56,429 bases of DNA from a virus. Below, in pieces: positions 5,921 to 27,584 of the stretch. The stretch lies in the IMG/VR virus record IMGVR_UViG_3300012960_000001, positions 1-56,429 of that record, one strand, 5' to 3'. The notes under the pieces are model-generated. The model was not told where the DNA came from and did no database searches. It worked only from the letters and a program-made list of their open reading frames with translations. Positions within the stretch are counted from its first letter, which is position 1. Each line of letters begins with the position of its first letter. Position numbers and translations under genes: made by a program.

Positions 5921-5931
5921 ATAATATAATT

Positions 5932-7349: not shown

Positions 7350-7558
7350 AATTCTTTGTTTAGTAAATCATCGATCGATACATTAAAGACCTTTCCTATT
7401 CCTGCAAGCATGTTTAAGTTTGGCTCCGATTTACCAGACTCCCAACAGGCATACCGGGTTCTGGCGATGCACAAATCCTCCGCTGTCTCAAATTGATTCT
7501 TACCTAATAACTCCCTCAGTTTTTTCAGGTTGTGAATGAATATCTGTTTGGGTACCAT
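7346..7558 (-). CDS. XRE-family HTH regulator
   Basis: KNQFETAEDLCIARTRYACWESG...IGKVFNVSIDDLL. Confidence 0.8.
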   Translation of the reverse strand: MVPKQIFIHNLKKLRELLGKNQFETAEDLCIARTRYACWESGKSEPNLNMLAGIGKVFNVSIDDLLNKEL

Positions 7559-11278: not shown

Positions 11279-11658
11279 GATTTAAACTTTTCATTGCATG
11301 CCGTCACGACAAGTTTGCATTCTTCTACATCGAACATACCGATATGCGTATATTCTGGTGTTATTCCTATAGACTCACTTAGCCATTTATAAGCTGCCGG
11401 CCTTTTCATATTCCCACTTTGCCAAAGGCGGTCAAAGGAGGCATGGGCCGCTTTCTTCCATTCCCTTAATTCAGCATTGGCCAGACGCCCAAGCGCTTTG
11501 TTAGTCCCCTTATGGACGCCAACCCAAGACTGGCAAGGCCAGCAGAGATATATCATACCAAATGAGCAACCATAAACCACTACACTATCTATATATTTTG
11601 TCTTATCGTGACAGTATGGGCATTTTTGACCGGATAATATTTCAGGATCGGTGATCAT
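11266..11658 (-). CDS. Zinc-finger protein (DUF3268-like)
   Basis: CPYCHDKT...YLCWPCQSWVGVHKGTNKALGRLANAELREWKKAAHASFDRLW. Confidence 0.5.
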   Translation of the reverse strand: MITDPEILSGQKCPYCHDKTKYIDSVVVYGCSFGMIYLCWPCQSWVGVHKGTNKALGRLANAELREWKKAAHASFDRLWQSGNMKRPAAYKWLSESIGITPEYTHIGMFDVEECKLVVTACNEKFKSWVL

Positions 11659-12269
11659 GACTTACCTAATATGATTTTGAAAGAAGATTTAGAGGTCTTG
11701 GAAGGTCCTATAAGTGTTTCTCCGGTGGATTCGTCTACTAAAGCGCTGCCTGCAGGAATCATTTTGAGCCTCTTCTCTATCTCATTCTTTTTTTCTTGTA
11801 TCGCTTTTATCTGTTTGTCCAAGGCATCCCATTCAGGATTTGCGGAGTAATCATACTTGGTTCCGGTCTCTGCCAACTCAAACTTTACCCCTCTACCGGT
11901 GGTATAGCCTTTACCGTACTTTTTGATTTCATCCATGACGGCGGACCTGAATTCTTTATCGCCTTCGCTGCCCTCTGTGCCATGGATTACATCCTTTAGC
12001 TTACAGAAGAACTGGATTGCTTCTAGGTATTCAAACATTCCCCGGCCCTCCTCTAAGATCATCGTGCGCATCTGCTGGTGGAACTCCGTTACGTTCTGCT
12101 TAGTCAGGCGCAGGATGGTACCGGGCACGATTTCAGACACAACCGGGTAGTTGGCCATGGCATCCTGGTACTCGGCGTATTTTTGATCCTGTAGATGGCC
12201 CTGTTCTCTGTATGCCATGTCAGCGTTCATTTCATGCTCTGACATTTCTTCGAATAAGTCTTTGCTCAT
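11655..12269 (-). CDS. Hypothetical protein translationally coupled to RecT
   Basis: 204 aa. 4-nt overlap with recT. No nuclease motif recognised. Confidence 0.6.
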   Translation of the reverse strand: MSKDLFEEMSEHEMNADMAYREQGHLQDQKYAEYQDAMANYPVVSEIVPGTILRLTKQNVTEFHQQMRTMILEEGRGMFEYLEAIQFFCKLKDVIHGTEGSEGDKEFRSAVMDEIKKYGKGYTTGRGVKFELAETGTKYDYSANPEWDALDKQIKAIQEKKNEIEKRLKMIPAGSALVDESTGETLIGPSKTSKSSFKIILGKS

Positions 12270-13003
12270 GCGGTTTGTTTTTCAGATTTTAATTGGCTTT
12301 TACGCGCGGAGAGTTTGGATTTCAAATCCGGATTGCCCTCAAACATCGTGGCATGTAGTTTATAAAGTTTGCCTAACTCGTTAACCGTTTCGGACATATC
12401 GATTAGTAATTCAATATCCGTTTCGGTCTGTGCGGGCAGCAGCGTAACATCAGATGTTTCAGGATTATCACTTTGTTGCATTTCATCGTTTGTATAGAGA
12501 CCAGACAAATCTTGGGGATATGCTTTTCGGAGTGCCAATGCCTCAGCTACCTTAGATAGCATGGTATGCGGCATTTTAAGCCACATCTGATCCTGACCAG
12601 ACTGCGGAACATATTCATTCCAGTATGCCACGCCCACCGCTGCTTCATACCTTATATCCCCACGGAAACGATAAACGGTTACTTCAGCCGATATTAACCT
12701 TCCATCCTGCTCACAGAATACTGGTTTGCCCTGACCGCCATAGTCCCCGCTACGTTCAGCAATAACCCGGAAACCGTCTATGGAAGTTTGAATGGTCATT
12801 TTCTTTTCATACTGCCCGGTTTCTTTGTTTTTAGCATTACGCAGCATGCAGTATATCTGACGGGTTAACGGGTCTAGCCCGGTGCGGCGGCACTGATAAA
12901 GAAATAACTTTAGCTGGTCGTCGTTGGTTCCAGGGGCAATTTGCTTTTTAATCAAGTCAACCTGATCATTGTTAAAGTCTATTTTCATTAATCCCTTTTC
13001 CAT
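12266..13003 (-). CDS. recT: RecT-family single-strand annealing protein
   Basis: LKLFLYQCRRTGLDPLTRQIY...TSIDGFRVIAERSGDYGGQ, typical RecT/Bet core. Confidence 0.88.
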   Translation of the reverse strand: MEKGLMKIDFNNDQVDLIKKQIAPGTNDDQLKLFLYQCRRTGLDPLTRQIYCMLRNAKNKETGQYEKKMTIQTSIDGFRVIAERSGDYGGQGKPVFCEQDGRLISAEVTVYRFRGDIRYEAAVGVAYWNEYVPQSGQDQMWLKMPHTMLSKVAEALALRKAYPQDLSGLYTNDEMQQSDNPETSDVTLLPAQTETDIELLIDMSETVNELGKLYKLHATMFEGNPDLKSKLSARKSQLKSEKQTA

Positions 13004-13159
13004 CTTAGTGTTTTTCGGTGTTTTAGTTATTTTTCGCCAATCTCCTGGCTATTATCCTTTCCTTTGCCTCCTTTATTAACTTTATTTTAGTTTTCCAGAA
13101 TAGATCATGCTTGCATTTACGGGAGGTGTAGAGAAAGGGTAGGAGGTAAGGAAGGAGTG

Positions 13160-13432
13160 TCATGTTGTGCGGTTTTTGTACTGTTCTATAGCCTTTAGAA
13201 GCATTTCCTCCGGATATTCCTCGTAAAATGATCCTAATATCTCCTGTTCAATGTTGTAATCAAAGGGATCATTAAAATCTACATAGGCTGTCCAATAAGC
13301 CCTTACTTCGCGATAGCACATCAACTGCATAAGATCATCCGCGGCCTTATCTACATTACTGGTTCCACGCATATCAACCCCATACCGGTCCTGATCGTGC
13401 TTCCAAAGTGTTTCTAATATCTGTTCTCTCAT
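13160..13432 (-). CDS. Hypothetical protein
   Basis: Track ORF, 90 aa. Confidence 0.6.
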   Translation of the reverse strand: MREQILETLWKHDQDRYGVDMRGTSNVDKAADDLMQLMCYREVRAYWTAYVDFNDPFDYNIEQEILGSFYEEYPEEMLLKAIEQYKNRTT

Positions 13433-13504
13433 TTTGCTAGTATTTTAATCAGGTAATAAACAACAGTCCCCACAGTAGCCCATCTTATAGTAAGGCCAAG
13501 GTCG

Positions 13505-13822
13505 TTATGGTTGTAGCGTAGTCTCATCTGAAATATTGTTTAGTCTATCAATTTCAGCGGCTATAAGTGCGCCTGCTTTGGCCAGTTCATGTATCCGATC
13601 TTCAGGGCAAGGCTTCCACCACAGATATTCCCATGGCCATTCTACTGGCGTCGGAACAAAAAGATTATCCCTATAAGTTCTTTTAGAGATGGGCAAAGCG
13701 TAGCAAGCGGCAGCAATGGCCAGTTCGTTATTCTCATGTTCTGCATCATGTTCGATTGTCCAACCTTCCGCTTCTATCTGCCGCTGACGTTCTTCTGCGA
13801 TTATTTCTATACCTGTTTTCAT
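13505..13822 (-). CDS. Conserved-looking phage hypothetical protein
   Basis: IIAEERQRQIEAEGWTIEHDAEHENNELAIAAACYA, a pattern common in phage early proteins of unknown function. Confidence 0.6.
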   Translation of the reverse strand: MKTGIEIIAEERQRQIEAEGWTIEHDAEHENNELAIAAACYALPISKRTYRDNLFVPTPVEWPWEYLWWKPCPEDRIHELAKAGALIAAEIDRLNNISDETTLQP

Positions 13823-13840
13823 AAATTGTTTTTGGGTGAG

Positions 13841-14128
13841 TTAAAGTTGTACGGGTTCTTGGATTAAGTTTTCAATGTCAATGTTCATGGGTGGCTGGAC
13901 TTCAATAAAGTTTTGACTATGCCAGGACATTTCATCATAGACTGTTTTGCCTTTGTCTAAAAAAAACTCGTTGCCGTTTATTACTTCATCCAATAAAATC
14001 CCAAAACCATCCGCATATGTATCTACTTCCCTGATTGTGTAGATTAATCCCTTTTCTGGGACATTGTATCCTGCTGCTTTTGATACCGGGAAACCTTTAA
14101 TACATTGCACCAATGAGCCAACACGCAT
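13841..14128 (-). CDS. Hypothetical protein
   Basis: Track ORF, 95 aa. Confidence 0.6.
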   Translation of the reverse strand: MRVGSLVQCIKGFPVSKAAGYNVPEKGLIYTIREVDTYADGFGILLDEVINGNEFFLDKGKTVYDEMSWHSQNFIEVQPPMNIDIENLIQEPVQL

Positions 14129-14141
14129 GATTCATCTTTTT

Positions 14142-14173
14142 AAAACCGCAAGGCCTGTCCGTGTACCTGGCGG
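14142..14173 (-). terminator. Candidate intrinsic terminator downstream of the esterase gene
   Basis: Minus-strand RNA CCGCCAGG-(12 nt)-CCTTGCGG, 7 of 8 bp, followed by TTTT. Confidence 0.45.
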
Positions 14174-14220
14174 CTATCCTTAATTTAATGTTGCCTAACA
14201 TCAAGGACTAGGCATTGTCC

Positions 14221-15156
14221 TTATTGAAAGATCACCGTATTACCCTCAACTGTTTCAACAGTGATCCGTTTCGCGTTCTTAATGTCGTAGATAATTGTAT
14301 CCTTAACCGGTGGTTTGACTATGTAGGGAGTGGTAAATGTTGCAAACCATTCGTACATGTTCACCTGGGTAGGGTAGCCGTTTGGTAGGAGATAAGACCA
14401 CTTAACAGTTGGCTCTTTAGCTGCAGTGCCATATAAAGCGCCCCATCCACCATGCCCACCGGAATACATGGTAAGATCCCCAACTCCGCCGGCGTCTGTA
14501 TATGCCTTTAGCCAGGTTTTAGCATTATTGGTAAACCCATCCAAAGTACCAGACCAGAACCTATAAGGAACACTGTCCTTTACCAGCTGCGGTATTTTAG
14601 GGAGGTTAGCCAGAAAGTCACCTTGTGGGCTGGCGGATACCACTGCTTTAACTCGCCGGGCATGTATGGTATCTGTAGAGGCGTACATAGGGGCGCAGCT
14701 GCCGCCGAATGAAAGACCAGTTACGAAGATGTTATTGGTATCTATCGGCAGATGTAGTATGTTAATGCAGTAATTCAGCGTGTAGTCCATTGCCGTAGGC
14801 CAAGGGCAGCCCCACCGGTCTTGTGCCTGGATAACGATAAAGTACACCTTCTGATTAGTCAACGGATTGACTGCCTGCGGTGACCATCCGCCCTTTATCC
14901 GTTTCGGTAGACCATCCTCTGAAGTAAGTCGGGTGCTATCCGAATCCCGGGAAGGGGTAGCGGTAGACGTTGTGCCTGCGCCACCAAAGGATATGATTAG
15001 CGGGTACTTCTTGTTTAAGAAGTCCTTAGCCTCGTAAGGAACAGAAATGAATGTCCAGACTTGTTCGTATGGACTTTTGGGTGCCTTAACTATTTTATAT
15101 TGACCAGTAACCGGCAGGACGAGCCCTAAAAGAATGGCGATAAGTAACTTTCTCAT
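14221..15156 (-). CDS. Secreted alpha/beta-hydrolase (esterase/depolymerase-like)
   Basis: Signal peptide MRKLLIAILLGLVLPVTGQ. Nucleophile elbow GLSFGG. PLIISFGGAG oxyanion-like region. Confidence 0.65.
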   Translation of the reverse strand: MRKLLIAILLGLVLPVTGQYKIVKAPKSPYEQVWTFISVPYEAKDFLNKKYPLIISFGGAGTTSTATPSRDSDSTRLTSEDGLPKRIKGGWSPQAVNPLTNQKVYFIVIQAQDRWGCPWPTAMDYTLNYCINILHLPIDTNNIFVTGLSFGGSCAPMYASTDTIHARRVKAVVSASPQGDFLANLPKIPQLVKDSVPYRFWSGTLDGFTNNAKTWLKAYTDAGGVGDLTMYSGGHGGWGALYGTAAKEPTVKWSYLLPNGYPTQVNMYEWFATFTTPYIVKPPVKDTIIYDIKNAKRITVETVEGNTVIFQ

Positions 15157-15383
15157 TGTTTATTTTCTCCCTGGCTCTCCGCAGGGCTGGTTAAGCGTGT
15201 TTCGTTTATTTCGACGAAATCTGAATCATTAAATGTTTGGCCGTTTCCACATATCCACCAATAATGCCTATTGACATAGTATTTAGCTATTATCCACCCG
15301 GAGGTAATTTTCACCCAATAATATCCTGGTTCTCTTTTCATCTTATTTAGTTTCCTGCTGACCGGCAGTAGCGGCTTTTCCAA
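15153..15383 (-). CDS. Hypothetical protein
   Basis: Track ORF, 76 aa. Confidence 0.55.
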   Translation of the reverse strand: MEKPLLPVSRKLNKMKREPGYYWVKITSGWIIAKYYVNRHYWWICGNGQTFNDSDFVEINETRLTSPAESQGENKQ

Positions 15384-15636
15384 TTGATTTATTTGTTAAT
15401 TGCCGTTTATATGCCATTGTATAGGGGCTTATAGCCTCCTCAAGCGAATGATAGTGACCATATTCATACCATCTACGCCCGATTTTTTCCATCAGAAAAT
15501 ACTTAGCCGTAGGATGACGTTTATCATCGTATATAACACGTAACACATTACGCCGTTTGCCCCAAGTCTGCCAGCCATCAGCAAGTATTCGATTGTCAGC
15601 CCTATTTGCTCCACAGAATTTTATCTTATGTTCCAT
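15343..15636 (-). CDS. Hypothetical protein
   Basis: Track ORF, 97 aa. Confidence 0.55.
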   Translation of the reverse strand: MEHKIKFCGANRADNRILADGWQTWGKRRNVLRVIYDDKRHPTAKYFLMEKIGRRWYEYGHYHSLEEAISPYTMAYKRQLTNKSIGKAATAGQQETK

Positions 15637-15719
15637 TTATTCGTTTTTTAATTAACAGCAGCAGTATCTACTCCCAGCTACCGTTTTTTCAGTTCAGCTT
15701 TGATTATCCAAAGCCTTAG

Positions 15720-15803
15720 GGGAAGCGATCAGATTCGAACTGATACCTAGAACCACATTTTAAGTGGATGACATAGCCATTACGCCATTATACCCACACT
15801 TCC
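15720..15803 (-). tRNA. tRNA-like gene, non-canonical (oversized D region; anticodon loop UUAAAAU would read AAA)
   Basis: Minus strand: acceptor GGAAGTG/CGCTTCC (7 bp with one GU). Perfect T arm ATCAG-TTCGAAT-CTGAT. Anticodon-like CCAC-TTAAAAT-GTGG. Tandem TAATGGC duplication in the D region gives 84 nt. Confidence 0.45.
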
Positions 15804-15806
15804 CAT

Positions 15807-16046
15807 TTAAACTAATTCGAATTGTTCAGCATTTACCCAAATCTCATCGGGGAAGTAACCCCCTGGCATGTTAGAATTTAGTCTACCTTTTATTCTCAAA
15901 TCACCGCATTCAGATATGTCTATAACCTCATATTCTACATCTTTCAGGCAATAATCAATGGCCCATGTAAACATGCACGTACCTTCGGGTTCAACCCTGC
16001 TGTCTGTATCTTTAAATAGAACCTTATTCCCAATATTGAATGCCAT
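15807..16046 (-). CDS. Hypothetical protein
   Basis: Track ORF, 79 aa. Confidence 0.6.
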   Translation of the reverse strand: MAFNIGNKVLFKDTDSRVEPEGTCMFTWAIDYCLKDVEYEVIDISECGDLRIKGRLNSNMPGGYFPDEIWVNAEQFELV

Positions 16047-16820
16047 ATAATTTCGTTTATTACTTATAAAATTCTATAATTACATGCCCCTGGCAGACCT
16101 GCGAAGTCCTAAGCCAACAATTGTCACTTACCAGGGAGCCATACTAAAACACACCAAAACAAACTTCGCGATAACTCCCGCTATTTTCACCGTCCGTTGC
16201 CTTCAGCGTTAGAGGTTAGATAGCGGAATATGTTTGATCACTTCACCCCATTTAGCTCACCGGCGGGATATTCCTCTAAAAGACGAATAGAAGTGATCAA
16301 TAAGTTTTGTGTTGATGCGCGGACACCATTACGCTAGGTAGCTGGCATCGAACCAGTCTTTGTGAGGGGCGCATCCCGCGTTGCCCATCGAGCCGAACCC
16401 ATTGTATCAACACAATAATTTAATCCAATAAGAAAAGAACTTCAAAATTGGGAGGGTTTTACCCCTCCCTTTGTATATATCTAAGGTGGTGGCTACTCGT
16501 GGTTTGTATCATCTAAACTTGGGTAAACCTTACGAGCTTAAAAACCGTCTTCCTCTTAATACGCCAGCCAATTCCCACCTCCTGCGGTCTTAGTAATACC
16601 AGACAGTCGATACAGCCCGGATCATTTTTCACTTTATGAAAATCCAAAACAATTTCTTTAAAGTACCAAGGCTAGACAACCCCGGTGTTTGTATTAACTC
16701 TTATATTGATTATAACCCCAAATACTCAAATACCGTGTTCGTAGTAATCTTCTTATTCCCAATTACGCGGTTCACGTATGAACAGCCAGCGGAAGAAGGA
16801 TTTTATTGCGTGTAATATCT
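16047..16820 (-). ncRNA. Candidate large structured non-coding RNA region (ORF-free, helix-rich); strand assumed from the operon
   Basis: No ORF of 60 aa or more on either strand. Nested perfect inverted repeats of 11 and 10 bp plus several 5-7 bp helices. T-loop-like hairpin. Confidence 0.4.
16450..16469. terminator. GC-rich hairpin gggaggg-ttttac-ccctccc flanked by an A-run and a T-run (possible bidirectional terminator or RNA domain boundary)
   Basis: 7-bp perfect stem. Plus-strand tail is TTTGTATAT. Minus-strand tail is AATTTTG. Confidence 0.4.
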
Positions 16821-17216
16821 TTAGCATTGGGATAAGTTTTTGTCCAGTAATTCTCGGTGCTGATGTATGTTTCCGATTACCTCACAATCACACGCTACAT
16901 CACAGGTTAATAGTTCATGGTGCTGGTTTTTAGACCATTCCCCAAAAACGGCAAAGCCACCAAAATCTGATTCATATAACACTTCACCTTTGCCACGAAA
17001 CAGGTAGGAAGTATGAGGGGGCTCTTTTAGAATATCACCCTCATATATGTCAAAACCATTTTTATCTCTAAGGCCGGTGAATTGCATTAGGGGGTGTTGG
17101 CCCCCTGTTTCCATCCAACCTTCATAGATATTGAGATTGAACTCTTTTAACTTCTCCACCGTCAAGAAAATCATAGACTTGCCATCCCAAGCGCGGAACT
17201 TGATTTCTCTGTTCAT
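16821..17216 (-). CDS. YopX-family protein
   Basis: MNREIKFRAWDGKSMIF...LMQFTGLRDKNGFDIYEGDIL...VIGNIHQHRELL. Confidence 0.88.
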   Translation of the reverse strand: MNREIKFRAWDGKSMIFLTVEKLKEFNLNIYEGWMETGGQHPLMQFTGLRDKNGFDIYEGDILKEPPHTSYLFRGKGEVLYESDFGGFAVFGEWSKNQHHELLTCDVACDCEVIGNIHQHRELLDKNLSQC

Positions 17217-17225
17217 TTTTAAATA

Positions 17226-17603
17226 TTAAGGTTTGATAAACTTTAGCAGTGATCTTAATGCTTCCTCGAAGTTTTCGTCCAGGTTAATGGGCTTATTGGT
17301 GCATGAATAAGAGTAGGAGGGCCCGTATAGTTCATCCATCCAATAATAACTAAAGTATACACAGTAGTACTCATTCTTAGACTGAAAATCCTCATTGTAA
17401 ACACAGCCAAGTTTGTTTGCTATGGCAATAAAAAAGTCTTTTGTTTCCTCTTTACCCACGACACCGAACTCGATTTTAGCGTTTAAATCTGGTGAAATTG
17501 TGGGGAATAGACTTCGGAACAGTCCTATTAGCGTTTGCCTCGCACTCGGGTTATCACCATACGCTTTAAGAATATAATTTCTATCAACAGTTAAAGTGCT
17601 CAT
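17226..17603 (-). CDS. Hypothetical protein
   Basis: Track ORF, 125 aa. Confidence 0.6.
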   Translation of the reverse strand: MSTLTVDRNYILKAYGDNPSARQTLIGLFRSLFPTISPDLNAKIEFGVVGKEETKDFFIAIANKLGCVYNEDFQSKNEYYCVYFSYYWMDELYGPSYSYSCTNKPINLDENFEEALRSLLKFIKP

Positions 17604-17718
17604 TATTTTATCTTTTTATGATCATAACCCAGGTACACAGCTGCTATCCCTACTAGAATAATAACAAGTACCCATTTAGTTTGCTCTGAAGGCTGGGAAA
17701 GGAGCCAGGAGAATTGAA

Positions 17719-18201
17719 CTAGCATGGCTGAAGTGTTTTGTGTTCACGAAATTTAGCCTTGTAGGTAGGCTGTTCTTCGATATTATCAAGAGAAAGGAGC
17801 ACATCAACTACGGCGCACAGACCATTGTATTGGTCCTCCAATATTTCCTTTTCTGAAAAATCACAATATTCATCATACGAAATTTGTGTATTGCGTTCAA
17901 ATGCAAACTCGACTTTCGCTAAGTCACCATATTCATATCCTGTCAGATTGAAAATCTGTTCTTGCTCGGTTTTATTATCAATATTTATCCGTTGGATAGC
18001 ACCATCAGTCATGAATACACGGGCCCAGAATGAATTGTCGGTTGAGCAATCAAAAAAAGACTTGTTTTTCCTTATTACTCCACCTTGTGCATCAGCAATA
18101 ATATTTCCTACTGCACAGGCAACACAAGTTTCTTTGGCAAGGGTGCCTTCAAAAAAGCCTTTAACCAAGGCGTTATATGCTTTCTCAAATCTCGGAGTCA
18201 T
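17719..18201 (-). CDS. Hypothetical protein
   Basis: Track ORF, 160 aa. Confidence 0.65.
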   Translation of the reverse strand: MTPRFEKAYNALVKGFFEGTLAKETCVACAVGNIIADAQGGVIRKNKSFFDCSTDNSFWARVFMTDGAIQRINIDNKTEQEQIFNLTGYEYGDLAKVEFAFERNTQISYDEYCDFSEKEILEDQYNGLCAVVDVLLSLDNIEEQPTYKAKFREHKTLQPC

Positions 18202-18599
18202 TGGTCTTGTTTTAATAATGTATGTTGATGTTTAGCATAATACTCGTCCAGTTCCTTCCTGATCATTGGTTCATGTGCCTCTATGAACTCACCTACTAGT
18301 ATCCCCTGCATCTTAGCCGGTTGGTCGTGCCACCATTCCCAGAAATCAGGACCAAGATCCATGTAGTAATAAGCAGTTGCTATCCAATCTTCAAAGTCCC
18401 ACGGCATCCATTCTTTCACGAAAGCAGGAATATTAGGCTCCCACCAGGTATAGGATAATTCAGTTGTGAACCAGCCCAAGCAATCAGTATCGGACCAGTG
18501 AGTGATCTGGATTTTAGTATCCTTTGGTATCTCCCGGATCTGTTCCGCAGTCTTTTGAGGCCCGAAGTGGTTTATCATGAAATTAGTAAAGAGGTTCAT
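18198..18599 (-). CDS. Hypothetical protein
   Basis: Track ORF, 133 aa. 4-nt overlaps on both sides. Confidence 0.65.
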   Translation of the reverse strand: MNLFTNFMINHFGPQKTAEQIREIPKDTKIQITHWSDTDCLGWFTTELSYTWWEPNIPAFVKEWMPWDFEDWIATAYYYMDLGPDFWEWWHDQPAKMQGILVGEFIEAHEPMIRKELDEYYAKHQHTLLKQDQ

Positions 18600-18793
18600 G
18601 GTTGTACGATTGTAGGTTTGATAAGGGCTGCCCGGTGTTCAATGAACGCCAGAAGCTTTTTGTATCTGAGGGCCAGACGTCTGTATTTAAATTCAGTTCT
18701 AATTGAACCAAATGTGCGCCCCGTTTCTACTGCATCTTCATAGAGGGCAATACGTGCCTTACACATAACTTCATGGAATGCCCAGTTAATCAT
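18596..18793 (-). CDS. Hypothetical protein
   Basis: Track ORF, 65 aa, overlap-coupled. Confidence 0.55.
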   Translation of the reverse strand: MINWAFHEVMCKARIALYEDAVETGRTFGSIRTEFKYRRLALRYKKLLAFIEHRAALIKPTIVQP

Positions 18794-19137
18794 GGCTGCA
18801 CAGTTTTCAGGTTAAGGGCTGCTTCTATTGCCTCTTTGGCTTCATAATACCATCCAGGCACTAAGTACATCTGACTATCTTTGGAGCGATTATCTTCTTC
18901 CTCCACTGCTTTTATGAGTGCAGAGAGCAGGAGCGGAGAAGCGGCAAAAAGTGTGGCGGTTGCCTGTGCCTCATTTTCTCCAACGCCACCACCGTAGTCC
19001 GGATAAACCCGGCAATACATTCTGTTACAAAGTGTATTATCCGACTCTCTATGGTGCAGAGCATAAACAAACGCAGTTTCAGTAATTAGGTATGTTCCGG
19101 GCGTTCCTTTGTATTCATATTTCATTGAACCGATCAT
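18790..19137 (-). CDS. Hypothetical protein
   Basis: Track ORF, 115 aa, overlap-coupled. Confidence 0.6.
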   Translation of the reverse strand: MIGSMKYEYKGTPGTYLITETAFVYALHHRESDNTLCNRMYCRVYPDYGGGVGENEAQATATLFAASPLLLSALIKAVEEEDNRSKDSQMYLVPGWYYEAKEAIEAALNLKTVQP

Positions 19138-19325
19138 TTAACTGGTGTTTTAGTACTTTTTTCAATCTCCATTGCTAAATCAACCGCTATCCAGGATATC
19201 TGCTGTTCAATATCCCACTTATCAACCCCACGTCTTTTAGCCATGGTCTTTAGTATTTCCGGTTCCTCTCTTAGCTTTCGGTTATAAAAGGATACCGTAT
19301 CGCAGAATAATTCAATAGGTGTCAT
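19134..19325 (-). CDS. Hypothetical protein
   Basis: Track ORF, 63 aa, overlap-coupled. Confidence 0.55.
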   Translation of the reverse strand: MTPIELFCDTVSFYNRKLREEPEILKTMAKRRGVDKWDIEQQISWIAVDLAMEIEKSTKTPVK

Positions 19326-19346
19326 AGGGTAGGAATGTTAAGATTT

Positions 19347-19757
19347 TTACATACAGTTGTCCCAAATAGCATGTCCCATGCAATCTTCACAATTCAGTAT
19401 TTCATATTCTTCATCGTCAGTTAGGACAGCCTTTCCACAATATTGACATGGCTGAAGAATGCCCGGTAAATCCAAATTTGATCTGGTATCTTCTACTTTT
19501 GATAGATCCACGGTTTCAGGATCAAATTCCTGATACTCCGGCCTTTCTTTTAGCGTCTTACGGAAGCCCTCTTTCCAAGAGGCGGCAATTATTTCGTTCT
19601 TATCCATCATCCTACTGGCATCCGTTTTTACCTGATAGCCTATTCTTGAAGGCAGTCTCCCGTCGATATAGTCCAAAGCATTCGCGGCAGTTTCACCCTT
19701 ATTTAGTTGGTATATACCATGCGCCGCCAATCGTTGAATTATTTCAGATTTTTTCAT
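19347..19757 (-). CDS. Hypothetical protein with a C-terminal zinc ribbon
   Basis: CQYCGK...NCEDC. Confidence 0.6.
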   Translation of the reverse strand: MKKSEIIQRLAAHGIYQLNKGETAANALDYIDGRLPSRIGYQVKTDASRMMDKNEIIAASWKEGFRKTLKERPEYQEFDPETVDLSKVEDTRSNLDLPGILQPCQYCGKAVLTDDEEYEILNCEDCMGHAIWDNCM

Positions 19758-19769
19758 GACAGGTGGTGT

Positions 19770-20048
19770 TTAGGAGGTTTTAGATTCTTCGCAAAAGGAT
19801 GCACCGCATTGTTTACAATTCCCCATAACAGAAAACAAAATGTTTGTCCCTTCAACGGTATTCCAGGTACCACAGTGCGCGCAGTAAACGTCCCTCCCGG
19901 AACGATCACCGGTGTACGTTAACTCGGGTGTCCAGTGGCCTACAAATTCTCTGTAAGTGCCTTGTTCGCCATGTTTTGGTTTATAAATTTCTTTCATCAT
20001 TAGGGTGTTATTGGTGTTTGGAAAGCTCTGCAAGGGCGGCTTTAGCAA
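19770..20048 (-). CDS. Small zinc-ribbon protein
   Basis: CAHCGT...CKQCGASFC. Confidence 0.55.
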   Translation of the reverse strand: MLKPPLQSFPNTNNTLMMKEIYKPKHGEQGTYREFVGHWTPELTYTGDRSGRDVYCAHCGTWNTVEGTNILFSVMGNCKQCGASFCEESKTS

Positions 20049-20232
20049 TCGTGACAGCTATTCGTGCTAAAGTGCCTTCTGGTGTTTCTGCAGGTCCGAC
20101 AGGGCCACCAAAGGCAGAATTCGCACACAGCCCCTGCATTGCTGCCATAGTGAAAGTTTCCAACCTTGTTAATCCTAACCCAGAATCACCTAAAAATTCA
20201 GGCGATGGGAATGCCGGCATTGAATTATCCAT
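20008..20232 (-). CDS. Hypothetical protein
   Basis: Track ORF, 74 aa. Confidence 0.5.
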   Translation of the reverse strand: MDNSMPAFPSPEFLGDSGLGLTRLETFTMAAMQGLCANSAFGGPVGPAETPEGTLARIAVTIAKAALAELSKHQ

Positions 20233-20257
20233 TATTAACTATTTTAGTGGTGTATTA

Positions 20258-20500
20258 TTAATGTTTGGAGTATTTGTTACGGTAAATCTTTTCAGCCATC
20301 TTTTTGTTCCGGGCAGAAATCTTTATCCCTTTGATCACGAATTCGTGCATGTCTGTATTTTCCCGAAAGGAAGGAGGCACATCTAGCTTTTTACTTGGCA
20401 ATTCACGCTCATTTTGAGAGTCGTATCCTTTCATTCCTTGCGAATGACCGATCATCGCGTAAGCCATTAAAGCAGCAATAACAGAACTATTATGGCGCAT
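20258..20500 (-). CDS. Hypothetical protein
   Basis: Track ORF, 80 aa. Confidence 0.55.
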   Translation of the reverse strand: MRHNSSVIAALMAYAMIGHSQGMKGYDSQNERELPSKKLDVPPSFRENTDMHEFVIKGIKISARNKKMAEKIYRNKYSKH

Positions 20501-20503
20501 TTT

Positions 20504-20614
20504 TTAGTTTTTAGAGTTGAAGAAATCCCGGAATAAACCCGTCCTTGCTAATTTGTAAAGGGAGAGTAAAGCAATGCCGGCGATAAGAGCTATATAAATG
20601 ATTTGAGTAGTCAT
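20504..20614 (-). CDS. Small membrane protein, 36 aa (below the track cutoff)
   Basis: Hand translation: MTTQIIYIALIAGIALLSLYKLARTGLFRDFFNSKN. Confidence 0.35.
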   Translation of the reverse strand: MTTQIIYIALIAGIALLSLYKLARTGLFRDFFNSKN

Positions 20615-20635
20615 GGTGTACTGTTTATGGAGTAA

Positions 20636-20842
20636 TTAATATTGTTCATCGTGGCCTTCACACTGGTACTTAATGTGCTGCATAAAGAAGTATTCTCCGG
20701 TGGAACGGTCTTTCTTGTATCGGATACCAGCAGCTGCCAAATCTTTGAACTTGATCTGTATTTCCCGCTGATATACGTTATTGTGACCGCAGGAGCATTC
20801 TTGATGTACTTGCACTGTTTTGCAGGTTGTTTGGCGTGCCAT
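20636..20842 (-). CDS. Small Cys/His-rich protein
   Basis: Track ORF, 68 aa. Confidence 0.55.
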   Translation of the reverse strand: MARQTTCKTVQVHQECSCGHNNVYQREIQIKFKDLAAAGIRYKKDRSTGEYFFMQHIKYQCEGHDEQY

Positions 20843-20846
20843 TTGG

Positions 20847-21053
20847 TTAGTATTTAGTAATGATGTTCTTGCGGAAGTCTACGTTAGCCCGGATGATGAA
20901 CTTTTTCAGCTCATTAGACCTTTTAGCATCTCGGATCTGATTTAAGCCCCGTAGGTTGATCCGGAAGTCGACATCAAGGGACTTAGCAGCCCCGAGCATA
21001 AACTGTCTTTTTAATGCGTCTGTTTCGCAGTGGATGTTTAGGAACGTGTTCAT
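20847..21053 (-). CDS. Hypothetical protein
   Basis: Track ORF, 68 aa. Confidence 0.55.
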   Translation of the reverse strand: MNTFLNIHCETDALKRQFMLGAAKSLDVDFRINLRGLNQIRDAKRSNELKKFIIRANVDFRKNIITKY

Positions 21054-21065
21054 GGTGGTGTGGTG

Positions 21066-21272
21066 TTATAAGGATTGGAGTTTCTTTTTATTTGCTGCGA
21101 TAATTTCCTTTGCTTTCTCTACTACAATTATTAAATCATCATATTTTCTTCCCTCCCCATCAAGTACTCGATATATTGACCGAGCATTGATATTTAATTC
21201 CTGACAGATTTCGCTGACATTAACTTTCTTAAGGATGGATCTAAATTTCTTCTCTTGCGATTTTGTTAACAT
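21066..21272 (-). CDS. Cro-like HTH protein, first gene of the leftward early operon
   Basis: VNVSEICQELNINARSIYRVLDG HTH. Divergent from the cI-like gene. Confidence 0.6.
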   Translation of the reverse strand: MLTKSQEKKFRSILKKVNVSEICQELNINARSIYRVLDGEGRKYDDLIIVVEKAKEIIAANKKKLQSL

Positions 21273-21327
21273 ATGTAATACTTTTTACATAACACGGTTG
21301 TCATCATTATTTATGTCCCAATTGTGC

Positions 21328-21335
21328 TATATTTG
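21328..21335 (+). promoter_or_regulatory. Bacteroidota-type -7 box TAtaTTTG (TAnnTTTG) facing the cI-like gene
   Basis: Exact match to the TAnnTTTG pattern, 96 nt upstream of ATG 21431. Confidence 0.3.
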
Positions 21336-21358
21336 AGCCGTAATTATGACTTCAAAGT

Positions 21359-21409
21359 ACGTCCTTTTAGTTCGTATTTCCAAATGTTTTTTACGAATTT
21401 TTAGGACGT
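21359..21409. promoter_or_regulatory. Composite palindromic operator candidate in the cro/cI intergenic region
   Basis: ACGTCCT-n5-TTCGTA (21359-21376) mirrored by TACGAA-n5-AGGACGT (21392-21409). Confidence 0.55.
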
Positions 21410-21430
21410 TTTGTTCAAATAACTTCAAAA

Positions 21431-21685
21431 ATGATTGAGAATTTTGCAGAAATATTAAAACAGAGGCGGGAGTCAATGAAGCCACGATGGACACAATCCA
21501 AGGCGGCAGAGGCTATAGGGGTGTCTCTGAGACAATATCAGAAGTACGAACGCAATCTTATGCCCCCTTGGGACGTATTGGCGAGAATAAAGTACGTGTT
21601 TGGTATTTCACTGACAAACATAGAAGATGGCCCCAAAAGCCATAATGATCAAGTAATCATTTCGCAAAGACACCTAATAATATGA
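21431..21685 (+). CDS. XRE-family HTH repressor (cI-like)
   Basis: WTQSKAAEAIGVSLRQYQKYERN...IKYVFGISL. Divergent from the early operon. Confidence 0.75.
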   Translation: MIENFAEILKQRRESMKPRWTQSKAAEAIGVSLRQYQKYERNLMPPWDVLARIKYVFGISLTNIEDGPKSHNDQVIISQRHLII

Positions 21686-21912
21686 TACCAGATATAATAA
21701 TCCCTTCAGATAAGCAGTACGATTTTATTATAGCTTCCTTAATTCGCCAGGAGGCGATGCTAATGAATATTTCAGAAGGGCTCAATGTACTTGTGGCTCA
21801 GGCAGAAAAACGGGACTTGATAAGTCAACAGGACGTGTCAGATGCAGAATATGTAGTGAAATTAAAAGAGCTTGCTCGGAAATTGAATGAACTTTATTCA
21901 AAACAGGGGTAA
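21682..21912 (+). CDS. Hypothetical protein co-transcribed with the repressor
   Basis: Track ORF, 76 aa. 4-nt overlap. Confidence 0.55.
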   Translation: MIPDIIIPSDKQYDFIIASLIRQEAMLMNISEGLNVLVAQAEKRDLISQQDVSDAEYVVKLKELARKLNELYSKQG

Positions 21913-22196
21913 CAACCTTTTTTATTGGCTTAGCTTTATTTCGCATTAAGGTAGATTTTAACAGTTACAGAGGACGGTGGACTAACGGGCATAAGGATTA
22001 GATGATGTGGTTTGAAATTTCTCGTCCTACATAATTTGACAACGAATAGCTAAAATAAGTAAATGTTATGTCTTAATGAAATTTTTAACAATTGAGCACC
22101 GGCCCCAAGCAATTATTAATAATCGTAACTTCGCATTGATACTAAAAACATCCGAATTGACACCGCAGTATACACTTATTCAAAAATAAATTCCCT

Positions 22197-22754
22197 ATGA
22201 AAAAACTTATACTATTTGTCTTAATATGCCTTCCTGGTATCCTTAATGCCCAGCCCCTAAAGTATAGCAGGGCCTATTTGGGAGCCATTATCCATGATAG
22301 TAGACTTGGCGGAAGCATGATCTTGTCTTATGGGCTGAATAAATATTTAGGCATTGGTGCTGGTGTGGAACTCACTTCATATAGACCATCAAATACTGAT
22401 GATGCAAAATTCTTTGCCCCTTTTTATGCTGATGTAAGATTTAAATACCCTGTTAAATATATTGAACCTTTCGTTTTCGGGCAGTTCGGCAAGCATTCAT
22501 ATGAAAGCAATTTAGGCACCTATACAGATCAAACAGGTGCTCCCACCTTGAAATTAAGGGAGCAGGGTAAATACTTTTATGGAGCAGGATTGGGCATAAG
22601 TTCTAAGCACAGTAAAAAGGTTGGCGCTTTCGCCTCTGCAACATATAGACTATATAAATTCCAATATGATCCTAATAAAGTAGATTTCAATGGCCGGATA
22701 TTGGTAGATCGCGAACAATCAATGTTGATCATAAGTGCGGGTCTGGTGTTTTGA
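22197..22754 (+). CDS. Outer-membrane beta-barrel protein (porin-family/OmpA-like barrel), moron
   Basis: Signal peptide MKKLILFVLICLPGILNAQ. Alternating aromatic/Gly strands. C-terminal ...ISAGLVF. Confidence 0.65.
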   Translation: MKKLILFVLICLPGILNAQPLKYSRAYLGAIIHDSRLGGSMILSYGLNKYLGIGAGVELTSYRPSNTDDAKFFAPFYADVRFKYPVKYIEPFVFGQFGKHSYESNLGTYTDQTGAPTLKLREQGKYFYGAGLGISSKHSKKVGAFASATYRLYKFQYDPNKVDFNGRILVDREQSMLIISAGLVF

Positions 22755-22863
22755 TAATATAATATTATCGACCGCATTTGCTAAAAGTATTTTGCCGGGA
22801 TTTTTCGAGACCAAGTTTAGTAATCCCGCTTAAAACAAACAATGCTAAATACTATTTTCACAT

Positions 22864-22889
22864 AAGGCCCGCTGAAAGGCGGCCTTTTT
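22864..22889 (+). terminator. Intrinsic terminator after the OMP moron
   Basis: AAGGCC(C)GC-tgaaag-GCGGCCTT followed by a T-run. Confidence 0.75.
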
Positions 22890-22905
22890 CATTGGCTATA
22901 CTATC

Positions 22906-22918
22906 TATAAAATCTATA
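22906..22918 (+). promoter_or_regulatory. Late-operon motif tataaaatctata (copy 1, upstream of the terminase operon)
   Basis: Identical 13-mer at 30421-30433. 11/13 match at 43924-43936. Confidence 0.45.
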
Positions 22919-22951
22919 TCTTTACATTAATAAATAAATATAGTCTATATC

Positions 22952-23131
22952 ATGAAAGTATTTGGTAGAGAGTTATCAGCAGGCTTCCGTCTATGTCAAC
23001 AAGGAGATGATATACTATTCGGAATTGACCTCACAGAAGGTATTTGTGAACACTGTGGTAATCCGGTTCACGTAACACGGATAGGATTGGGCTTTGCAGA
23101 ATTGGATATCTTCTGTCAGGAGGGACATTAA
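22952..23131 (+). CDS. Small protein, 59 aa, first gene of the terminase operon (below the track cutoff)
   Basis: Hand translation: MKVFGRELSAGFRLCQQGDDILFGIDLTEGICEHCGNPVHVTRIGLGFAELDIFCQEGH. Confidence 0.45.
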   Translation: MKVFGRELSAGFRLCQQGDDILFGIDLTEGICEHCGNPVHVTRIGLGFAELDIFCQEGH

Positions 23132-23142
23132 AATACTAAATT

Positions 23143-23598
23143 ATGGCGCTCACTGAAAAGATGATAAGATTCTGCAATGAGTATCTCATTGACTTGAATG
23201 CTACCCAAGCAGCAATAAGGGCCGGTTACTCGGAAAACAGCGCTCGACAAATCGGAGATGAGAACTTGTCAAAACCAGATATTCAAGCTTATTTAGATGT
23301 ACGCCGTAAGGAAATACAAGCCAGGCTTGAATTGAACCAGGATTGGGTGTTAAAAAGGCTCAGGGAGATATCTGACCGCTCCATGCAAGCCGAACCCGTT
23401 CTAATGTTCAATGGTGAAGAATGGGTAGAAAGCGGTGAATACAAGTATGACTCTAACGGTGCCAATAAAGCAACAGAGTTAATCGGTAAGCATTTAGGAA
23501 TGTTCGTCAATAAGATCGATATGACTACTAAGGGCGAATCCCTCAATGATAAGAAACCCACTGTAACCCTCCCTGACGGAACCCAAATCGAAATATGA
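23143..23598 (+). CDS. terS: Terminase small subunit
   Basis: FCNEYLIDLNATQAAIRAGYSENSARQIGDENLSKPDIQAYL, classic Terminase_2 signature. Confidence 0.92.
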   Translation: MALTEKMIRFCNEYLIDLNATQAAIRAGYSENSARQIGDENLSKPDIQAYLDVRRKEIQARLELNQDWVLKRLREISDRSMQAEPVLMFNGEEWVESGEYKYDSNGANKATELIGKHLGMFVNKIDMTTKGESLNDKKPTVTLPDGTQIEI

Positions 23599-24890
23599 AC
23601 GAATTAGTCGTTGTTGATCTTAGCAAGAATCCCAAACAATATGACTACTGGATAGAAGTTGTTAAATCCTGCAATGGCCTCACAGATAAACGCAAGTTCG
23701 CATACGGGGGAGCGATACGCGGCGGTAAAACCTTCATCACACTATGGATACTCATTTACCTAGCTAACCGCTATAAAGGTTCTAAATGGCATATTATCCG
23801 GCATGATTTCCCGGCCCTGCAGGAAACCGTTATCCCATCACTGGAAAAGATTATCAAAGACTCACCTAACTGGAAGTGGAACAAGGATAAGTCCAACTTC
23901 TTTGCGTATAACAAACACGGTTCAAAGATATTCTTCAAAGCAGAGAACATAAAGCAGGATCCTGAGCTTGATGATTTTCTGGGGCTAGAGACTAACGGCA
24001 TCTTCCTAGAGCAGTTGGAAGGGCTTAGCCAAAAGTTATGGGGAATGGCGTTATCCCGGTGCGGATCCTGGTATATTGACCCGATGCCACCGGCGTTCAT
24101 GTTCACTACCTTTAACCCGACGCAGAAGTGGCCCAAAAAGGAGATTTATCTAAAGCATAAGAATAATGAGTTACCGGCTGATTTCCACTACCAAGAGGCT
24201 TTCCCTACGGATAACGCCTATGTGACACAAGACCAGTGGAATGCCTGGGGAACGATGGACGAGCGCTATCAAAAGCAGTTCATTAACGGTGACTGGACTA
24301 ACTTCGATGAGTCCGATAACCTCTTTTGTTATTCTTACAGTGAGGCTAAACATACCGGTGTGGTAGAACTTAACTCCAAGGGAGAGGTTTACTTGTCGTT
24401 TGACTTCAACGTGGATCCTATCACATGCCTGGTGGCACAATTATATAATGGTACCTTGTTCGGAGTCGAGCAAATCTCCCTTACTAACAGCGACATCTAC
24501 AAGCTGTGCGCCTATATAAAGGCTAAATATGGGGGCCGCATGTTCCTGGTAACAGGGGATGCTTCCGGCCAGAACCGATCAGCGCTTACTAAGGATAACA
24601 TCAACTACTATCAGATAATTAAGAATGAACTGGGGCTAGGATGGGGACAATTCAAGGTACCGGCTTCCAATCCCTCCCTAGAAGAAAACCGTGTACTAGT
24701 TAATGCTGTACTACATAAGCATAAGGTGGTGCTTGATAAGGAGGGGTGCAAAAAGTTAATCCATGACGTGGAAAACGTTCGGGTACTGGCGGATGGCGGG
24801 ATTGATAAATCGGATAAGTCACTGACGCATGCCCTCGATTGCTTCCGGTATATCTGCAATACCTTCCTTAGCTGGATATTAAAGACCTAA
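23595..24890 (+). CDS. terL: Terminase large subunit
   Basis: Walker A-like YGGAIRGGKTF. FLVTGDASG and HALDCFRY nuclease-region motifs. Overlaps terS by 4 nt. Confidence 0.9.
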   Translation: MNELVVVDLSKNPKQYDYWIEVVKSCNGLTDKRKFAYGGAIRGGKTFITLWILIYLANRYKGSKWHIIRHDFPALQETVIPSLEKIIKDSPNWKWNKDKSNFFAYNKHGSKIFFKAENIKQDPELDDFLGLETNGIFLEQLEGLSQKLWGMALSRCGSWYIDPMPPAFMFTTFNPTQKWPKKEIYLKHKNNELPADFHYQEAFPTDNAYVTQDQWNAWGTMDERYQKQFINGDWTNFDESDNLFCYSYSEAKHTGVVELNSKGEVYLSFDFNVDPITCLVAQLYNGTLFGVEQISLTNSDIYKLCAYIKAKYGGRMFLVTGDASGQNRSALTKDNINYYQIIKNELGLGWGQFKVPASNPSLEENRVLVNAVLHKHKVVLDKEGCKKLIHDVENVRVLADGGIDKSDKSLTHALDCFRYICNTFLSWILKT

Positions 24891-25710
24891 CTGTTTTTAA
24901 TTCCTCTTTTATCCGTTCTAGACACCCCTCATAAGTAAAGTATTTCTGATATATATCCGGTATCGCTTCCTGCTTCCGCTTTATTTCCTCCGGCGGTATT
25001 GACATTAGTATCTCATGCACTCTATGGGCGTCTGCGGCATCAATAAGGACTCCATAATCCGTGAACGGTATGTTATGAGGGATCACCCACTCATCGCTTA
25101 TATAGACCGGAATGGAGCCGTATTGCAAGGCTTCCTGGATGCGGAAGGAAGTCGGCCCGAACCCACGCGGGCAAAGGGTGAAAACGGAGTTGGCGATGAT
25201 CCGGCAGTAATCATACAGGTCATGCTTAGCGGTATTTATATAGTATTCAGGTAAGCATGGAATCGCCTTTAACATAATATCCCTAATGGGATGTGTTGCT
25301 TTCCCGATGAAGTTAGCGAATGTGTTTCGATTGCCATTGGGGTGTAACCTATAGCCATGTGGTACACTTATCAATGGCAGCGGATAATCGGTCCTTCCCC
25401 CCGACATGCTAAAGACCTTAATGTCCAGATGTGAGAGATTGTGCTGAATGCCGTTATCATATTGCACAATTGTATATAGCTTCTTTGACCGATCTAGCCC
25501 ATTCAGGAACTTCTGCAGGTCAATCATTGCCGGTTTGTGCTGGCCGAATTTGTGCCGGCAGTAATAGGCCGTCCACATGACCGGCAGATATTCGCGTTCT
25601 GTATCCTGGAAGTCGTAGTTCTCGAAGTACCAGCGTTCGAACTCAGTTTCGTTGTCGGGGGGATATTTGAATGGGTGGCGCGGCTGGAACTTTTCGGGGA
25701 CGTGGATCAT
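24868..25710 (-). CDS. Exostosin-like (GT47-like) glycosyltransferase
   Basis: FTLCPRGFGPTSFRIQEALQYGSIPVYISDEW..PF matches the exostosin C-terminal signature. Confidence 0.7.
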   Translation of the reverse strand: MIHVPEKFQPRHPFKYPPDNETEFERWYFENYDFQDTEREYLPVMWTAYYCRHKFGQHKPAMIDLQKFLNGLDRSKKLYTIVQYDNGIQHNLSHLDIKVFSMSGGRTDYPLPLISVPHGYRLHPNGNRNTFANFIGKATHPIRDIMLKAIPCLPEYYINTAKHDLYDYCRIIANSVFTLCPRGFGPTSFRIQEALQYGSIPVYISDEWVIPHNIPFTDYGVLIDAADAHRVHEILMSIPPEEIKRKQEAIPDIYQKYFTYEGCLERIKEELKTVRSLISS

Positions 25711-27408: not shown

Positions 27409-27418
27409 ATAAAAAAAT

Positions 27419-27580: not shown

Positions 27581-27584
27581 ATAA

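Follow-up and report, generated by a model that had tools for sequence, protein, structure and literature searches.

What is encoded in the 774 nt that separate a YopX gene from a 79-aa open reading frame (ORF) in the genome of an uncultured phage? The stretch in question, positions 16047-16820 of the 56,429-nt IMG/VR virus record IMGVR_UViG_3300012960_000001 (the whole of which we refer to as the window), lies in a phage contig with terminase, RecT, and YopX genes from a rare, uncultured lineage whose best terminase identities are ~25%. No ORF of at least 60 aa is present on either strand, the longest being 59 aa on the plus strand (16636-16815) and 44 aa on the minus strand, and the stretch is the largest internal one of the 56-kb window with this property, other internal gaps being at most 365 nt long. 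Both flanking genes, YopX (16821-17216; Pfam PF09643) and the 79-aa ORF (15807-16046), lie on the minus strand. An earlier note made from the sequence alone had reported the lack of such ORFs and the same two flanks, both of which hold, and had suggested a helix-rich large structured RNA, possibly of the GOLLD or ROOL type, or two RNAs split by a hairpin at 16450. We find that the stretch is noncoding and that, compared with relatives, it is a mosaic of discrete minus-strand modules, some of which the relatives share. Our preferred reading, to which we give a probability of roughly 0.45 based on this comparison, is that the gap is a mosaic minus-strand RNA island of modules that act as RNA and not one large RNA. 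With moderate support, these modules probably represent a new family of modular phage noncoding RNAs at a variable locus resembling a tRNA island.

Five metagenomic relatives that were reached via flanking proteins (L332, L010, L011, L012, and L008) carry the comparison. The contigs referred to by handle are:

L332: 56.9-kb syntenic contig, found via the 95-aa protein
L010 and L011: found via YopX homologues, 71% and 60% identical
L012: found via a homologue of the 79-aa protein, 82% identical
L008: more distant, found via YopX
L333-L336: short contigs, found via the 95-aa protein

Read along the minus strand from YopX, the stretch divides into the following features:

16664-16820, minus strand: conserved noncoding block after YopX; its conservation extends into the last 70 nt of YopX
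16590-16659, minus strand: motif A, TTTTCATAAAGTGAAA (16627-16642) and then the imperfect hairpin CCGGGCTGT-ATCG-ACTGTCTGG (16599-16620)
16483-16583, minus strand: module X, ~100 nt closed by AGGAGGTGG (16575-16583) and CCACCACCTT (16483-16492)
16450-16469, strand unassigned: terminator-like GC hairpin GGGAGGG-6 nt-CCCTCCC, separating two units
16414-16446, minus strand: motif B, an AU-rich conserved 5' segment, AAGTTCTTTTCTTATTGGATTAAATTATTG
16307-16415, minus strand: P1 domain, the 10-bp helix H1 (16406-16415/16307-16316) closing 89 nt
16234-16300, minus strand: H2, a perfect hairpin of 11 bp, TTGATCACTTC/GAAGTGATCAA, whose 45-nt interior is branched
16176-16228, minus strand: P2, a conserved hairpin built of a 9-bp outer stem (TTCCGCTAT/ATAGCGGGA), then an internal loop, a bulged helix further in, and a tip of 3 bp
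16084-16174, minus strand: P3 region, with the helix GCGAAGT (16163-16169)/ACTTCGC (16101-16107)
16047-16074, minus strand: upstream region of the 79-aa gene, belonging to the gene cassette and not to the RNA modules

Conserved modules and their strand

Between the window and L332, identity is 93% in motif B (L332 5520-5548), 87% in P2 (L332 5540-5608), and 91% in P3 (L332 5691-5781) compared to 70-79% in gene bodies. Motif B, which is unique in the window (0 occurrences expected), is also present in L010, L011, and L012 and lies in the relatives right after a gene or after motif A; P2 is also present in L011. The block after YopX is 78% identical to L332 3622-3848 and has a conserved ORF in neither phage; hairpins are found in it at 16770-16783 (GTTCA-CGTA-TGAAC) and 16666-16685 (CCGGGG/CCTTGG), and its folding z score is +0.63.

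The 53-nt P2 element has the same predicted fold in the window, L332, and L011 (z=-3.06, -3.29, and -2.81, respectively), and in the alignment of these three sequences 94.7% of the cells are paired versus at most 52% with the partners slid. In two pairs both partners are replaced (U-A by C-G and C-G by G-C). None of the seven positions at which the window and L332 differ breaks a pair: four are in unpaired columns, two make up the compensatory pair, and one creates a pair. We consider the structural support that this comparison lends to P2 real but thin. Because the three conserved G-U pairs of P2, and the two G-U wobbles via which the 5' strand of the L332 P3 helix (TTGTGAG) pairs, would give A-C mismatches on the plus strand, we assign these modules to the minus strand. 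The main P3 helix crosses a second one, CCCTGG (16131-16136)/CCAGGG (16088-16093), which would make P3 either a pseudoknot or a pair of alternative structures. What stands of the earlier claim of a structured RNA is thus that parts of the stretch are conserved on the minus strand with compensatory changes; these parts are short modules and not one RNA.

Modules and ORF cassettes are gained and lost whole at sharp boundaries. In L332, genes of 393 and 122 aa follow the post-YopX block; both are missing in the window, leaving a clean junction at 16664/16659, and the indel breakpoints at 16590/16442 and 16084/16074 lie at module edges as well. No homologue of module X was found in any relative, and it is absent from L332, in which motif A abuts motif B; the GC hairpin is also missing there, and 16583-16447 is specific to the window. 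Toward the 79-aa gene, homology to L332 ends at 16084, and homology to L012 begins at 16074 and runs through the gene (80%). P1 is missing in L332, and no homologue of it was found in any relative; at its position, L011 has a different perfect 9-bp helix, TTGTCATCC/GGATGACAA, that closes unrelated 87 nt, and the first-domain closing helices of the window and L011 differ at four paired positions and are both perfect. No counterpart of H2 was found in the relatives. The two long helices and the T-loop that the earlier note had stressed are lacking in L332, and no homologue of them was found in any relative. An extra hairpin between P2 and P3 of L332 is homologous to the next hairpin in L010 and L011, and the pairing of the TTGCG hairpin (H4) is kept in L332, L011, and L010 as GG/CC, GGG/CCU, and GAU/AUC. 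The upstream neighbour of the RNA unit is YopX in L010 and L011, the 79-aa gene in L012, and the 122-aa gene in L332, and the element downstream differs in each relative. Twelve module instances from five loci have a common 5' flank, RANWUA followed by UU(G/C), and most end CAA. Each module begins directly downstream of a linker of the (U/A)UA-UUG type, and CAA closes most of them, exceptions being the P2 and P3 stems. No comparable element was found in L253, L254, or L337.

In the arrangement that we propose, YopX would be followed by the conserved 3' block, by motif A as a possible start or boundary signal, and by two units. Unit 1 (~150 nt) would be the window-specific ~100-nt domain ended by the GC hairpin, and unit 2 (~360 nt, 16446-16084) would have motif B as a single-stranded AU-rich leader followed by H1/P1, H2, P2, and P3. 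P2 and P3 would form the conserved core, with P1, H2, and module X as accessory insertions. We infer that the modules are made within the early transcript or from motif A, the minus strand being that of the surrounding early genes, that they are processed at the linkers, and that they act in trans; the products would be small RNAs, or RNA domains, that are structured and stable, like the small RNAs in the tRNA clusters of other phages.

Could the modules instead be small protein genes or a frameshifted pseudogene? The ENA gene caller places a 42-aa ORF on the plus strand (16084-16212), and a putative 52-aa ORF in L008 (1613-1771) starts inside the motif-B-like sequence ATGTTCTTTGACAAAGATATTGG. 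The latter has no PHROG match, however, and we found no ORF shared by the window and L332 in the stretch. The noncoding similarity detected by tblastx between these two is equal in all six frames, all three frames of P2 run into stops within its 50 nt, and the antisense 59-aa ORF is cut down to 29 aa in L332, most of the changes being non-synonymous. Nor do the relatives have a gene whose decayed remains would explain the stretch; the extra genes of L332 leave the clean junction described above. We hold a coding origin to be very unlikely.

Folding statistics and known RNA families

An 11-bp (16234-16244/16290-16300) and a 10-bp (16307-16316/16406-16415) perfect inverted repeat are present where the earlier note had placed them as nested repeats, as are the minus-strand hairpin CTGG-TTCGATG-CCAG (16342-16356), the 16450-16469 hairpin, and the smaller helices that it listed. 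Perfect local inverted repeats, counted from 10 bp upward, thus number two compared to 0.09 expected from dinucleotide shuffles (P=0.003), and only 1.1% of the 774-nt windows of this genome reach two; helices of at least 7 bp number 10 versus 4.8 expected (P=0.024). By contrast, the global folding energy is ordinary: the minimum free energy (MFE) of the whole stretch has z=-1.64 on the minus strand and -2.29 on the plus strand, 16078-16446 is level with shuffles (z=-0.15), and in sliding 120-nt windows the stretch is no different from the flanking genes. The description as helix-rich therefore applies to the long perfect repeats, which are enriched, and not to overall stability, which at z=-0.15 to -2.3 against shuffled controls is not unusual. 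Only single hairpins are exceptional, namely H2 (z=-3.14, with 1/200 shuffles equally stable), P2 (z=-3.06), and 16447-16594 (z=-2.79). Module X, which is predicted in both the MFE and the centroid structure and encloses a hairpin at 16496-16536, has z=-1.25 alone and -2.79 with the next hairpin. The sole outstanding local z scores of the stretch are those of 16450-16469 (-2.1 on the plus and -3.0 on the minus strand).

A search of the whole window with all Rfam 15 models at gathering score gave 0 matches, GOLLD, ROOL, tRNA, tmRNA, and introns included, and at E<=10 on 15400-17400 only chance-level matches to PrrB/RsmZ (18.7 bits, threshold 44) and to one snoRNA. On eight related loci, Rfam returned nothing but tRNA and a weak twister-P1 match elsewhere. 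No match was obtained by blastn with the region and the RNA regions of the relatives against 50,697 phage records, and a protein-guided search of IMG/VR (YopX, 79-aa, and 311-aa proteins) yielded distant relatives or none. When motif A, motif B, and P2 were used as DNA patterns to scan viral, metagenome, and genome collections, chance matches or none were obtained; 77 metagenome pattern matches turned out to be one unrelated human-gut gene and were discarded. Within the window, no other repeats of the region were found. As judged by these searches, the stretch fits no catalogued RNA family. Because noncoding RNAs in tRNA-type islands of phages are a known kind and no family fits, the variant would be new while its kind is not.

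A single giant ornate RNA over most of the 774 nt would account for the phage setting beside tRNA-type genes, the many helices, and the enrichment of long inverted repeats. GOLLD and ROOL are noncoding RNAs that phages encode within tRNA islands or next to them (PMC12286853). One part of GOLLD is conserved and another variable, and tRNAs can be present in a linker. The phage location near tRNA genes has its parallel here, with tRNA-Thr in L010 and L334 and only tRNA-like elements in the window; the core, however, consists of ~200 nt of short modules, with no sign of a conserved multi-domain fold of >500 nt. Moreover, Rfam is negative for the window at both thresholds and for the relatives too, the global MFE equals that of shuffles, the modules are singly present or absent, and two protein genes interrupt the homologous stretch of L332. 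The large GOLLD- or ROOL-type RNA of the earlier note thus gives way to independent modules of ~30-90 nt, and we regard one giant RNA as highly improbable.

Possible boundary signals and the weight of the evidence

Motif A is common to L332 (5444-5519), L012, L010, and L008, with one copy in the window and two copies each in L332 and L012. In the relatives, it begins at most 8 nt from a stop codon, and a tRNA or tRNA-like gene has a copy 47-51 nt upstream of it in both L332 and L010; the copies head different cassettes, i.e., a gene, an RNA unit, or a tRNA or tRNA-like gene. Our promoter tests covered the sigma-70-like and TAnnTTTG types: motif A has neither consensus, and 16047-16820 contains no sigma-70-like site and, on the minus strand, no Bacteroidota -7 motif TAnnTTTG. 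It is possible that motif A is a promoter or a cassette-boundary element. The GC hairpin at 16450-16469, which separates the two units much as the earlier note had thought it might split two RNAs, is called by a terminator scan on the plus strand (tail TTTGTATATA); on the minus strand, where the hairpin is followed by AAUUUUGAAGUUCUUUUCUU, the tail, AAUUUUGAAGUUCUUUU, is not called.

Several observations weigh against the modules being functional RNAs. Neither a promoter consensus nor a clear terminator bounds the units, the overall folding energy is the same as that of shuffled sequence, and P3 has an ambiguous fold whose MFE is not significant (z=-0.11). With three sequences, 63/500 shuffles match the covariation measures of P2, which are hence not significant, and two inner P2 pairs are broken in L011. 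P1, H2, and module X are without homologues and their helices could be recent palindromic insertions, and only 3-5 related sequences are available. Finally, patches that are 90-100% identical to L332 also occur at ordinary gene junctions:

20280-20242, 20251-20226, 20042-20003, 17223-17183, and 15377-15343: short high-identity patches at gene junctions

By this comparison, the patches are the linker pattern of mosaic phage genomes and, therefore, high identity alone may reflect recombination linkers and not RNA function.

A serious rival follows the same line: motifs A and B and the hairpins may be regulatory or recombination linkers, that is, cassette-boundary elements flanking mobile gene or tRNA cassettes in a hyperplastic region, and their conservation would stem from recombination there and not from a working RNA product. 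The indels between the window and L332 coincide exactly with the borders of modules (the genes of 393 and 122 aa at 16664/16659 and the 79-aa cassette at 16074-16084), the two copies of motif A in L332 and in L012 each head a different cassette (gene, RNA, or tRNA-like gene), ordinary gene junctions carry short high-identity patches, and the GC hairpin has a U-rich tail. PeSLs are promoter-stem-loop cassettes of T4-type phages that lie at the cassette borders of plastic regions (PMC2839356), and the present locus is like them in having short conserved motifs at the borders of variable cassettes, with indels beginning and ending at the motifs. It is unlike them in that the motifs have neither the sigma-70 nor the Bacteroidota promoter consensus and in that the window has just one copy each of motifs A and B, with 1-2 copies per genome compared to many, even dozens, for PeSLs. 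P2 and P3 (~70-90 nt, 87-91% identical) are also longer than linkers, and P2 is under an RNA-type constraint: its structure-preserving substitutions and G-U pairs would be needless for a DNA recombination site. On these grounds, we consider it possible, although unlikely, that the modules are boundary elements only.

The RNA carrying motif B could also work only in cis, whether by attenuation, by put-like processive antitermination, or by offering a platform for processing, and in this way control whatever is downstream. Its orientation is always that of the operon, it always lies upstream of further genes or tRNA-like genes, in the window it stands just after the terminator-like hairpin, and P3 offers crossing pairings (16163-16169/16101-16107 versus 16131-16136/16088-16093). 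In every relative something different lies downstream (the 79-aa gene, motif A and then a tRNA-like gene, or tRNAs), which makes a cis-only leader unlikely. In addition, the 79-aa gene of L012 lacks such a leader, P3 is not followed by a terminator/antiterminator pair with a U-tract, and put RNAs are not known outside HK022-type phages.

tRNA-like features of the locus

The interior of P1 contains a T-arm-like hairpin (16342-16356) and, 5 nt further 3', the D-arm-like hairpin TA-GCG-TAATGGTGTC-CGC (16317-16336), which can also be written UA-GCG-UAAUGGUGUC-CGC-G. Searching the 113 kb that the two strands make up with our own pattern for T arms rather than a curated model (the loop TTCRANN on a stem of 4 bp or more with a closing G-C pair), we found only two such hairpins, both on the minus strand of this island. 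P1 itself has a folding z score of -0.31. Three resemblances were set aside as being at chance level: a 9-nt match, GCGTAATGG, between P1 and the tRNA-like gene described below and a 9-nt complement between 15674-15682 and 16337-16345 (~3 expected for a region of this size by our own estimate), and a similarity of the P1 D-arm to L010 1083-1101 that is limited to an 8-mer.

Downstream of the stretch lies a further element:

15718-15800, minus strand: tRNA-like element with the acceptor GGAAGTG/CGCTTCC and the T arm ATCAG-TTCGAAT-CTGAT

Its acceptor stem has 7 bp, its D region contains a tandem duplication (TAATGGCG followed by TAATGGC), and its anticodon loop is UUAAAAU. Nowhere in the window does ARAGORN call a tRNA or tmRNA, and this element is not detected by the Rfam tRNA model at E<=10 either; it may be an inactivated or non-canonical tRNA. 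The tRNA-like gene that the earlier note had seen ~240 bp downstream is therefore borne out by its T arm and acceptor stem but not by either tRNA finder. Because L010 and L334 have tRNA-Thr at the same locus (that of L010 being the sole ARAGORN call on 15 loci), sequence comparison supports that the locus corresponds to a tRNA island.

Also present in relatives are tRNA-like genes whose acceptor, D, and T arms are normal and in which an insert of 45-110 nt replaces the anticodon arm:

L008 ~1984-2150: insert-bearing tRNA-like gene, ending in an encoded CCA
L332 ~5836-5968: insert-bearing tRNA-like gene, sharing its 3' end with that of L008
L010 918-1019: insert-bearing tRNA-like gene, scoring 27 bits with the Rfam tRNA model
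L334 ~295-397: insert-bearing tRNA-like gene

All of these are missed by ARAGORN, and they could be a separate unusual RNA class. We also noted a shared noncoding module, AAAATCCAAGCGG.TAAAGCTGG..., in L012 (2014-2105), L334 (55-151), and L332 (~5868-5900) that is not found in the window; it lies directly after tRNA-Thr in L334 and within the insert of the tRNA-like gene in L332.

How should the paired hairpins of P1 be read? P1 resembles a tRNA in its T-loop TTCGATG with a G-C closing pair, in its D-loop-like TAGCG-TAATGG, and in occupying the slot of tRNA-Thr in L010 and L334. It differs in having no cloverleaf and no acceptor or anticodon arm, in the T arm preceding the D arm, and in being negative with ARAGORN and Rfam RF00005. 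The YrlA Y RNAs have a T-like before a D-like stem-loop inside a terminal helix, a pattern that tRNA dimers or tandem tRNAs also yield (PMC4201824). P1 shares with YrlA the 5'-to-3' order of closing helix, variable region, T-arm-like hairpin, and D-arm-like hairpin. Unlike YrlA, however, it has no acceptor-like stem-loop to separate the T hairpin from the D hairpin but only a 5-7-nt linker, CTACC(TA), and the GNCGAAN0-1G motif is missing from 16446-16357 on the minus strand. Further differences are that no Ro60/TROVE gene was found within ~4 kb on the same strand, Pfam scans of the neighbours revealing no TROVE domain and 11655-23595 containing no ORF of >311 aa, and that P1 is lacking in L332 and replaced by an unrelated domain in L011. 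We treat P1 as an accessory insertion, be it derived from tRNA or a mimic of the tRNA elbow.

Another rival is that the whole stretch is a decaying tRNA array, in which tandem tRNAs would have left the T-arm/D-arm pair and the other odd elements resembling tRNA as relics, the rest being drifting spacer. A T-arm-like hairpin followed 5 nt on by a D-arm-like one is what is expected of a collapsed junction between two tRNAs, the relatives have tRNA-Thr at the locus while ARAGORN and Rfam call nothing in the window, and P1 folds unremarkably and has no homologue. Yet motif B, P2, and P3 are unlike tRNA and more conserved than the neighbouring genes, P2 is under pairing constraint, and P1 is closed by a perfect 10-bp helix; decay of a tRNA array is thus a quite improbable account.

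As an elbow mimic, P1 would combine T and D arms in the order of Y RNAs, without an acceptor stem or a Ro60 partner. The core (motif B, P2, and P3) could then be a scaffold for swapped helix-closed domains, one of them this mimic, and the RNAs could be decoys for, or adaptors to, host enzymes or defences that read tRNA shape. This idea, which also takes in the insert-bearing tRNA-like genes of the relatives, is speculative and has a low probability in our view.

Returning to the preferred reading of a modular RNA island, we see its nearest analogue in T4. The T4 RNAs RNAC and RNAD sit among eight working tRNAs, whereas the window has no tRNA accepted by a tRNA finder. They are small RNAs of unknown role from the phage tRNA cluster (PMC3014915), and we liken the modules to them by description. 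A looser likeness is to the phage RNAs that occur near tRNA islands (PMC12286853). Together with GOLLD and ROOL, RNAC and RNAD mark phage tRNA islands as a repeated source of RNAs of unknown purpose. If real, the modules would add a small modular RNA family from an uncultured phage lineage, possibly of Bacteroidota, without cultured relatives, and RNA domains would be swapped at the same sharp boundaries as gene cassettes; P2, at 53 nt, would be a compact test case for ligands of such RNAs. If the modules are boundary elements instead, they would be conserved linkers driving cassette shuffling outside T4-type phages. Either way, the idea of a single giant RNA is corrected.

Two other roles for the stretch were considered and dropped: a replication origin, there being no iterons or direct repeats and an ordinary base composition, and an attP site with a tRNA 3' end, there being no integrase among the scanned ORFs of at least 200 aa. 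Elsewhere, an unrelated AT-rich phage contig that also encodes YopX (L009) has an AT-rich ORF-free stretch after YopX that is unrelated to the one described here; at 7386-7447, the contig contains a match resembling the twister-P1 ribozyme (41.3 bits compared to a gathering score of 67.2; E=3.7e-6). Just upstream of a 97-aa gene of the window, 15636-15696 on the minus strand has a hairpin, GCTTTGGATAATCAAAGC, followed by GAACTGAAAAAACGGTAGCTGGGAG, which is 80-89% conserved in L332, L333, and L334. The last 958 nt of the window (55472-56429) hold no complete ORF of at least 50 aa on either strand, maybe as an end effect, ORFs that run off the window end not being in the ORF list. Lastly, genes for a GT47 exostosin-like protein, an FkbM methyltransferase, GT11, and GT2 lie at 24868-29020 on the minus strand, opposite the structural genes, and this sugar-modifying cluster looks like a moron for surface-glycan modification.

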